From Octopus vulgaris (Eukaryota), in contig OX597837.1 of NCBI GenBank assembly GCA_951406725.2, positions 45,384,001 through 45,448,000 on the forward strand: a stretch of DNA of 64,000 nt, read 5' to 3'. The translations under genes and the position numbers were made by a program. The notes beneath the pieces were generated by a model. It had not been told where the DNA came from. It saw only the letters and a list, made by a program, of their open reading frames with translations, and did no database searches. Below, in pieces: positions 1,018 through 57,300 of this stretch. How positions within the stretch are numbered: position 1 is the first letter of the stretch; each line of letters begins with the position of its first letter.

Positions 1018-1023
<6 letters not shown>

Positions 1024-1309
1024 TAAATATTAGGGAATAAATCCAAATTTACAGGGAAAAAATCAGGGATTATATATAGGTTATATATGGATTATATATT
1101 TATATTTTTTCATTCATACTTTAATTATTTTAAAATTATTATTTTATATTTTAAAATATTGATATTTTAGATTGGAAGTCCACCTGAAGATTGTCGATCA
1201 AGACAAGAAACAATTGTAGTGGCGGTTTTTTTTACTATTTATTAAAATGTTATGTATTGATTAAGTCTTTCCTTGTTTGTTTTGCAAAATAGTGGTTTTG
1301 TCTCTAATA

Positions 1310-1315
<6 letters not shown>
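1018..1315 (+). mobile_element. Short hammerhead-bearing unit in (TA)n, probable Penelope-like solo pseudo-LTR fragment
   Basis: About 300 nt of non-repetitive sequence bounded by (TA)n tracts on both sides and containing a complete hammerhead motif. Confidence 0.6.
1180..1222 (+). ncRNA. Minimal type I hammerhead ribozyme
   Basis: CCAC-CTGAAGA-TTGTC(gatcaa)GACAA-GAAA-CAATTG-TA-GTGG: stem I, intact core, 5-bp stem II, palindromic stem III, GUA cleavage triplet ending at 1218. Confidence 0.9.
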
Positions 1316-25745: not shown

Positions 25746-25789
25746 ACACAACATTTCGGCTGATATACCCTCCAGCCTTCTTCAGGTGT
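25746..25789 (-). ncRNA. Minimal type I hammerhead
   Basis: Minus strand ACAC-CTGAAGA-A-GGCTG(gagggtatat)CAGCC-GAAA-TG-TT-GTGT; stem III reduced to ATGT. Confidence 0.75.
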
Positions 25790-25855
25790 CTTGGGGAAAT
25801 TTCTAACCTAGGTTCTCATTCGATGTTATTATTATTATTATTATTATTATCATTG

Positions 25856-55007: not shown

Positions 55008-56011
55008 CGGCATTTTAAAATTACAAGCGTTCGCTTCACATCTTCGCTTTCCATATATGTATATGCGTGTATGTATGTAGACGCTCCTGTATGTACATTT
55101 ATATATGTGTGTGCATGTGTTCGTGTATATGTGTGCGTGTGTATGTCTATGTATACGTGTGTTTATATGTGTATGTAGCTATACGTGTATGTATGTATAT
55201 ATATATATATATAAACGTCACATATTGGAGTTTCTTACATCTGTTAAAATGTCTAATCTATGCACACTGTTGTTTATATCCTCCCCGATAAGATTGATGC
55301 ATTGCTCCACATTATTCATCCTGTCGGATTCATTTTGAATGCATCCATCGGAGCATATGTCAATTATATGAAGATTTAAATGATTTAATAACATCTCGAT
55401 CGTTTGTCTCCATTTTCAAATTTTCCCATCTTCTCCAAAATACGTTCCGCTTCTCACCGGAATTAACTCCCACACAAGTGTGACCACTGATTCCTAGGAC
55501 ACTTCTGTCACATTTGGCCACCTTATAATCATTCCCTTGGATCTTTCCTATAACTTGAACATTCATACATATGCACCAGGCTTTCTTTGGATAAACCTGC
55601 AACCAGAATAATTACTGCAAATGGAGATCATTAATATTAACGGCTCCCTCAAGAATATACTTATTCCCCCAAGAAACGTTCTCCTGAAGCAAGTAATCAA
55701 TAAGGTTAACTCATCCATTAACCGTATCAGATGGCAAGCTTTCTTCTTCGATAATAAGGATATCAAGCCAGCCTCCAATGAGCAATATTCGGAATTTAGT
55801 AAATTGTTCAAATCTGAAAATAATCCTCCTAAGAGTTTGAAGAGGGCCTCGGGTCTACTGTTAAGAAGATTAAATTCCATTGTTCACCCTTAAGAAAGAA
55901 ACATCTAAAATCTTTGCATAATGTTACCAAAGAAATAAACAGCAGGGATGACGTTCTTGTTCAATCGGATAAAACTGGTAACCTGTATCACTTAAACACA
56001 GATTTTTACCT

Positions 56012-56314
56012 GTGTGGAGACACATGGCCTAGTGGTTAGAGCAGCGGACTCACGGTCGAGGGATCACGGGTTCAAATCTCAGACCGGACAATGTGTATGT
56101 TTATGAGCGAAACACCTAAGCTCCACGCAGCTCCGGCAAAAGGTAATGGCGAAGCTTCTGCTGACTCTTTCGCCACAAATTTCTCTCACTCTTTCCTCCT
56201 GCATCTTGCAGCTCTCCTGCAATGGACCGGCGTCCCGTCCAGGTGGGGAACCTATGCGCCGGGAAACCGGCCCTTATGAGCCACCCGTGGCTCAAGAAGG
56301 AACAAACAACAAAG
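56012..56314 (+). mobile_element. tRNA-derived SINE (body 1 + tail 1) with 12-bp TSD
   Basis: AGATTTTTACCT at 56000-56011 and 56315-56326. Confidence 0.93.
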
Positions 56315-56666
56315 AGATTTTTACCTAAAGCTACTCAGAAAGGAAATACAAAAAGTATACAAGACTACTAGTAAAAATGCTGTCAGAAAGGTTAACCTAG
56401 AGGCTAAGAAAATTATGGGAAAATATAACTTACAAATGAAAATTCAGCCTTTATCTCCAAAACAACCCCTTTTGGCCTTTAAGGATCACAAGCCTAAATT
56501 CTTCAATAACCCAACTCACCGTTTATCTGCACTTCCAACTCGGATATCGGTATACTTAGCAAAAATATTCTTGGTAAGTACATCCCGTCGTTAACGAAAA
56601 TAATTAAACTTAATTTATGGTCTAACTCGTTCCAGGTTGGGGAGTGGTTTAACTCTATCGATAATT

Positions 56667-56900
56667 TGTTTCTTTATTGCCCACAGGGGGCTAAACGCTG
56701 AAGGGACAAACAAGGACAGACAAAGGGATTAAGTCGATTACATCGACCCCAGTACGTAACTGGTACTTTATTTATCGACCTTGAAAGGATGAAAGGAAAA
56801 GTCGACCTCGGCAGAATTTGAACTCAGAATGGACCGGCAGACGAAATACGGCTACGCATTTCGCCCGACGTGCAAACGTTTCTGCCAGCTCGCCGCCTTC
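56667..56900 (-). mobile_element. Full-length Meta-type SINE with 16-bp TSD
   Basis: AACTCTATCGATAATT at 56651-56666 and 56901-56916. Confidence 0.93.
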
Positions 56901-57300
56901 AACTCTATCGATAATTAAGTAAACACTAAATCTATCCACTTCGATATCTGCAGTTATTATTCCTCTATCAATCCCATCATCCTTAATAAAGCCCCATGGT
57001 TCGCGCATACTAAAGCTGACCTCACCTCCTGGATGAAATTAATGTTGTTCTAGCAACTAAAATATGTTATCCAATTTGATAACAAATACCCCATTTTTAA
57101 TATATACGGCTCTATATCTTCGAGTGCGCATCTGAGATTTTACAAAAACAACAAAAATATTATTTAAAAAAACAAAAACATTTTTTAATTTTTTAATTTT
57201 TAATTTTTTAATTCGGACTTTTGTTTTTTACAAACAACACACAGACTCACACACACTCACACACACACACATATATATGTATATAAATTTAAGCATATAC

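Follow-up and report, generated by a model that had tools for sequence, protein, structure and literature searches.

The ribozyme-bearing unit at the locus

The window (the whole stretch of DNA analysed here, 64,000 nt of the Octopus vulgaris contig OX597837.1) contains, close to its left end, a short unit embedded in a target microsatellite of the (TA)n type, whose left flank spans 973-1017 and whose right flank spans 1316-1340. Matching to a longer parent element resolves the unit into two arms of opposite orientation. On the minus strand, 1013-1066 hold the distal part of a tail of ~85 nt (the stretch of 5' UTR downstream of the end of the pseudo-LTR, or pLTR), which starts from a fixed end, B. 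This inverted arm corresponds to +89 to +36 of the parent relative to a second fixed end, A, with a match of 100% (copy L001), and its first ~5 nt are ambiguous with TA (start at 1013 or 1018). On the plus strand, the last 104 nt of an intron of ~1.8 kb (1067-1170, colinear with long copies and reaching to the acceptor AG at 1169-1170) are followed by the exon 2 part of the pLTR (1171-1315), at whose start spliced arms elsewhere join exon 1 and which runs to end A. In other words, ~50 nt of inverted tail meet the final 249 nt of a pLTR head-to-head, in a copy of the unspliced class that follows the end rule of the family, with B on the left and A on the right.

The sequence-only reading had taken the unit for a solo pLTR or an independent, non-autonomous retrozyme-like element mobilised by the enzymes of a Penelope-like element (PLE). 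The TA tracts on both sides and the lack of an ORF inside are borne out, and so is the tie to PLE pLTRs and PLE enzymes. The sense arm (1067-1315) shares 98.5% identity with the pLTR carried by a copy whose ORF is intact. The unit of ~300 nt is present too, although not as one colinear piece, 1013/1018-1066 being antisense and 1067-1315 sense to the parent. It is not a solo pLTR, but an inverted two-arm truncation that does not derive from recombination. Its independence is contradicted by that same identity, by an internal junction that occurs once in the 2.8-Gb genome, and by the absence of a tandem array of the unit at the locus, where a single ribozyme is found. The window unit is an ordinary stub of a young PLE family, that is, a truncated inverted insertion, which is a known kind of structure.

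The hammerhead, of type I and of the minimal/dimer type, occupies 43 nt of the plus strand (1180-1222), as judged from the sequence, from computed energies and from 492 exact copies of the 43-mer in the 2.8-Gb genome (0 for the reversed control). A stem I of 4 bp (1180-83/1219-22) encloses the core CUGAAGA (1184-90), a stem II of 5 bp (1191-95/1202-06) with a loop of 6 nt, GAAA (1207-10), and the triplet GUA (1216-18), with predicted cleavage between 1218 and 1219. The position, the intact core bases and the predicted cleavage after A1218 stand as they had been read. The label of a textbook hammerhead with all three stems perfect has to be given up, as stem III comprises only 2 bp and a palindromic AAUU loop, and the pair 10.1-11.1 is U-A (U1191-A1206) and not the conserved G-C of hammerheads (PMC4209133). 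As a monomer, stem III is computed to be unfavourable (-5.4 kcal/mol closed vs -6.2 open), and its 8-nt palindrome pairs with a second ribozyme copy at -6.4. The conserved core and the three-stem topology of type I are thus present in a dimer-compatible form. PLE hammerheads have been described as dimer-type designs with low in vitro activity (PMC4209133), and weak cleavage, as a dimer, is predicted for the present one. Shuffled sequence folds as well as it does (z -0.48), and Rfam gave no hammerhead match at gathering or loose thresholds, a result which is uninformative for minimal motifs. The three common variants found across 213 arms keep pairing or sit in loop 2, but this conservation is not evidence of selection, because the family is so young. 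A relaxed hammerhead descriptor gave 2 matches in the 64-kb window vs 0 in each of 30 block shuffles. The second one is a type I hammerhead-like motif of another family (25752-25795, minus strand), with a 6-bp stem II and a 10-nt loop, and it is followed by an (ATT)n tract.

The parent element

The parent is ~6.3 kb long and is organised, in copy L034, as pLTR, tail, ORF, a 3' UTR of 3.6 kb and a further pLTR, with the ATG 138 nt past the pLTR end. Full ORFs starting with Met (837-851 aa) are found in six copies, and further copies have open frames of 838-841 aa. At the motif level, the ORF combines an RT (YRDD at 359) and, at the C-terminus, a GIY-YIG domain (YIG at 732) with KWK at 43 (the RWK motif with R changed to K), DKT at 128, CxCx5C at 690, CxxC at 796 and CxH at 825, the last two in place of CCHH. 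This agrees with the signature described for the Hydra clade, including Hydra-1_Obim (Craig et al. 2021, PMC8557442), namely RT plus C-terminal GIY-YIG, xWK (KWK), DKT, CxCx5C and CxxC/CxH. The hammerhead in the pLTR, the preference for (TA)n (TA borders 97 of 98 A/B ends examined in the family), the partial tandem and inverted structures and the optional tail are likewise shared with that clade. Unlike the Hydra-clade PLEs of the same source, which are generally <3 kb (a typical and not a strict value) and have tails of 30-40 bp, the Octopus family has a monomer of ~6.3 kb, a tail of ~85 nt, an internally repeated 3' UTR and an Asn-rich linker. On its motifs and on a by-eye fit to the published alignment, the parent is assigned to the Hydra clade of PLEs. 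Two of its protein motifs and its ribozyme string are absent from the available part of the supplement of PMC8557442, so it would not be Hydra-1_Obim, and it is regarded as a new Hydra family. Pfam and PDB searches with the parent ORF gave no significant match; a protein search with it returned 40 relatives, mostly unnamed and two of them from Argonauta, with 31-42% identity in the main matches.

Some further traits of the long copies deserve mention. The Asn-rich linker (~90 residues; 4640-4920 of L034) lies between the RT thumb and the endonuclease region, and recalls the N-rich inserts in Penelope ORFs of Adineta vaga. The 3' UTR (5630-9285 of L034) contains degenerate GT-rich repeats of 250-420 bp and an inverted AC-rich block, as does the intron, and in some long copies the donor region is present twice, at a spacing of 1.2 or 1.7 kb. 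The window itself also carries a fragmented RT from another Hydra-type PLE family (55639-57086, plus strand; 34-46% identity), in four pieces and broken up by other repeats.

Spliced arms and paired ends across the family

The family-level pattern matters more than the window copy. The 5' breakpoints of the arms cluster between window positions 1170 and 1171, directly after an AG, and the upstream partner of this breakpoint lies, in long copies, 1.8 kb upstream, where it is followed by GTAAGT. Genome-wide, 462 arms are spliced in this sense vs 296 that keep the acceptor (by eye, ~42 of 99 among the matches listed for contig C1). The junction uses the first GT in 357 arms and a second GT, 4 nt further on, in 34, while in 71 arms it uses the second GT and the first one is mutated to GA, an allele that 37 of the first 100 unspliced donors listed (264 in total) carry as well. 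No microhomology was found at the splice junction, and both main haplotypes occur as spliced and as unspliced arms. The intron is of the GT-AG type, measures 1805-1853 nt in all but one of 12 long arms (2360 nt in that one) and is kept in all 12 long arms having donor and acceptor. Exon 1 is also sharply bounded: in 106 of 110 spliced arms it spans at most 23 nt, ending at the A of an initiator-like TCACTT (TCACT has been termed Inr-like; PMC3846280). Genome-wide, only nine spliced arms extend past this proposed start site, with more than 32 nt of exon 1; the longest has 301 nt, and none reaches the ORF. From this we infer that the intron-less arms reflect splicing and a transcription start ~23 nt before the donor. 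In contigs of four runs, presumed to be RNA and compared with exon 2 and the ORF start only (a comparison blind to splicing, strand and level), the stretch from exon 2 to end B is far deeper than the ORF. Among the papers listed by a literature search, none reports spliced genomic PLE copies or twin priming in PLEs.

The opposite ends of the arms are just as constrained. The 3' 24-mer of the unit occurs 1540 times in the genome, and 99 of the first 100 3'-end matches listed (contig C1) could be parsed, with 57 arms ending at A (window position 1315), 41 at B, which is 83-89 nt beyond A, and one running through. Random truncations of a long PLE had been named beforehand as the case against an independent element. 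The copies are indeed truncations of a long PLE, but far from random: their 3' ends are fixed, and one fixed 5' end, likely set by spliced RNA, predominates. Where two arms face outwards, they end at A and B in 23 of 24 pairs among the contig C1 matches listed (p ~6e-8 for 23/23), the remaining pair being composite. The same holds for 55 of 58 adjacent pairs from a wider, partly splice-selected locus set, whose exceptions include one A+A and one B+B pair.

Each pair also appears to have a common origin. Variants were common to both arms of one insertion in 28 cases vs 5.2 expected (maximum 13 in 2000 shuffles), and the rare +4 splice isoform was common to both arms in 10 of 11 clear pairs, which together indicate that both arms usually come from one template. 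That template need not always be a single RNA, given the insertion L221, whose arms differ in splice form and allele. Variants present in both arms could also reflect hairpin repair or conversion after insertion. Identical palindrome centres are found on different haplotypes and flanks, which implies that the palindromes recur independently. With regard to target-site duplications, a non-simple duplication was seen in 1 of 46 insertions, TA repeats hiding the remainder. This one insertion, L235 (G000:C29:19038700-19040000), is flanked by a 62-nt duplication that includes ~42 nt of unique sequence and may be a long target-site duplication.

Some arms stop near the ribozyme. Among the contig C1 matches listed, the stop falls 76-99 nt upstream of A in 15 of 99 arms, and between 100 and 141 nt in just one. 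The U-run 3' of the ribozyme is where most arms of 34 short palindromes end, and it holds the stops of both arms in 22 of 31. By eye, four arms stop exactly at the cleavage site, two are ambiguous and seven pass beyond it. The stops are no more than a hint of cleavage in vivo, since RT pausing accounts for them equally well.

Probable twin priming on a sense RNA

The window unit is a doubly truncated, head-to-head insertion of the young 6.3-kb Hydra-clade PLE, probably twin-primed on one sense RNA. The element protein would cut both strands of the TA repeat, and two cDNAs would then be primed on one sense RNA, one at site A and the other at site B, ~85 nt further 3'. Both would copy toward the 5' end of the RNA, stop early and become joined at their 3' ends. 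In the window copy, synthesis would have ended at ~50 nt for one cDNA and at 249 nt for the other, the latter inside the intron, which points to unspliced RNA, or the downstream pLTR of a full-length transcript, as the putative template. The spliced mRNA would start only ~23 nt before the donor and carry the priming sites in its 5' UTR, and as a template it would give only short promoter-less ribozyme palindromes of ~400 bp. Copies with an ORF would instead arise from the downstream unspliced pLTR, in which A and B lie 3' of the ORF. The intron of this 3' pLTR apparently stays unspliced, possibly for want of a cap-proximal donor, and such an origin would explain why full-length PLEs retain the intron.

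Alternative explanations share part of this evidence. A closely related one starts from the same parent and derives the inverted arm from fold-back self-priming of a single cDNA (or from an antisense template, as proposed in PMC3846280 for head-to-head junctions and intron retention, with a sense template left open there), the centre being deleted later. The variants and the splice form common to both arms would fit it, as would the frequency of palindromic junctions and the 28 of 55 pairs whose arms have 5' ends at most 10 nt apart. However, either arm may be the longer one (A in 13 pairs, B in 14), L221 combines two different templates, and the arms of five pairs, that of the window unit among them, share no overlapping stretch, which excludes copying of one arm from the other by fold-back unless the palindrome centre was lost later, as could have happened. 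The antisense version meets a further obstacle: precise intron loss needs sense RNA, and an antisense template cannot yield spliced palindromes, whose head-to-head form therefore requires a sense one. We consider fold-back improbable. The variable longer arm and the non-overlapping pairs, taken with the in vitro finding, for an Anolis PLE, of two internal sites at which RT starts and between which the tail lies, both strands being cut and extended (PMC11167929), make twin priming the best model.

Two other explanations depart further from it. The apparent splice junction might be a DNA deletion or a template jump in one master copy, amplified afterwards as a short MITE-like subfamily; splicing is deduced here from DNA, and some palindrome centres do recur. 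Nonetheless, the breakpoints fall exactly at GT...AG without microhomology, two donors 4 nt apart are in use, the GA-mutant allele uses the second GT, and spliced arms are found on all main haplotypes, so that this origin is barely conceivable. The unit might also be, as the sequence-only reading had it, an independent non-autonomous retrozyme-like element amplified via circular RNA by PLE enzymes. It is non-coding, carries a ribozyme and is flanked by TA, an origin from PLE pLTRs has been proposed for animal retrozymes (10.64898/2026.07.22.740005), and one locus of the PLE family, L214, holds three tandem ribozyme units of ~108 nt. Yet non-LTR retrozymes are head-to-tail tandem hammerhead monomers amplified as their own fixed unit, whereas the window unit has a single ribozyme and head-to-head arms and a junction without any second copy; the near-identity to the pLTR of an ORF-bearing copy and the short palindromes with identical centres on different haplotypes also speak against it. 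For the window copy this explanation is largely refuted, and we deem it highly unlikely.

Twin priming may go beyond this family. Whether PLEs integrate by obligate twin priming on sense RNA, with spliced mRNA as the commonest template and palindromes as its dead ends, is a question on which we are evenly divided. Priming would then occur ~170 and ~255 nt from the 5' end of the spliced mRNA, and full copies would form only via the downstream unspliced pLTR. If true, a single geometry would account for the tail, for inversions of the head-to-head kind, for the excess of solo hammerheads and for intron retention, with no need for an antisense template. Intron retention and head-to-head inversions with a one-sided tail are stated to be open questions for PLEs (PMC8557442, PMC3846280), and the hundreds of precisely spliced arms, the natural donor mutant and the near-strict A/B rule speak at the population level for a sense template and for twin priming. 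From the pattern, exact start sites follow as predictions that an existing in vitro assay could take up; it is also a caution that many of the "solo" hammerheads in genomes may be dead-end cDNAs rather than retrozymes.

Precedents exist for several of these traits. The Penelope element of D. virilis (Schostak et al. 2008, PMC2377424; Cervera and de la Pena 2014, PMC4209133) also has a start site in the pLTR, a short exon 1, a dimer-type ribozyme and a 5' UTR intron, which begins 46 bp from the start and has its acceptor right next to the hammerhead. That intron measures 75 bp, vs ~1.8 kb in the Octopus family, and is retained in genomic copies, in contrast to the excess of spliced arms found here; for the Hydra clade, the available text of PMC8557442 reports no such intron with abundant spliced genomic copies. 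The Poseidon element PAc of Anolis carolinensis (Frangieh et al. 2024, PMC11167929) shares the two start sites bounding the tail, the AT-rich targets and the cutting and extension of both target strands, the latter being proposed for the Octopus family. Its start sites lie inside the ORF, vs the 5' UTR here, and its account, in the part available, neither assigns one site to each insertion end nor discusses spliced templates. With animal non-LTR retrozymes (PMC7229834; 10.64898/2026.07.22.740005), the window unit has in common being a short non-coding type I hammerhead unit tied to PLEs, but those are head-to-tail tandem monomers with their own amplification, in contrast to a single head-to-head truncation. 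In L214 (1480-1810; G000:C5:64451600-64451900), each unit of ~108 nt contains exon 1 in inverted and in direct form together with a complete hammerhead, and the tandem units lie inside one spliced A+B insertion, where they resemble raw material for a retrozyme array.
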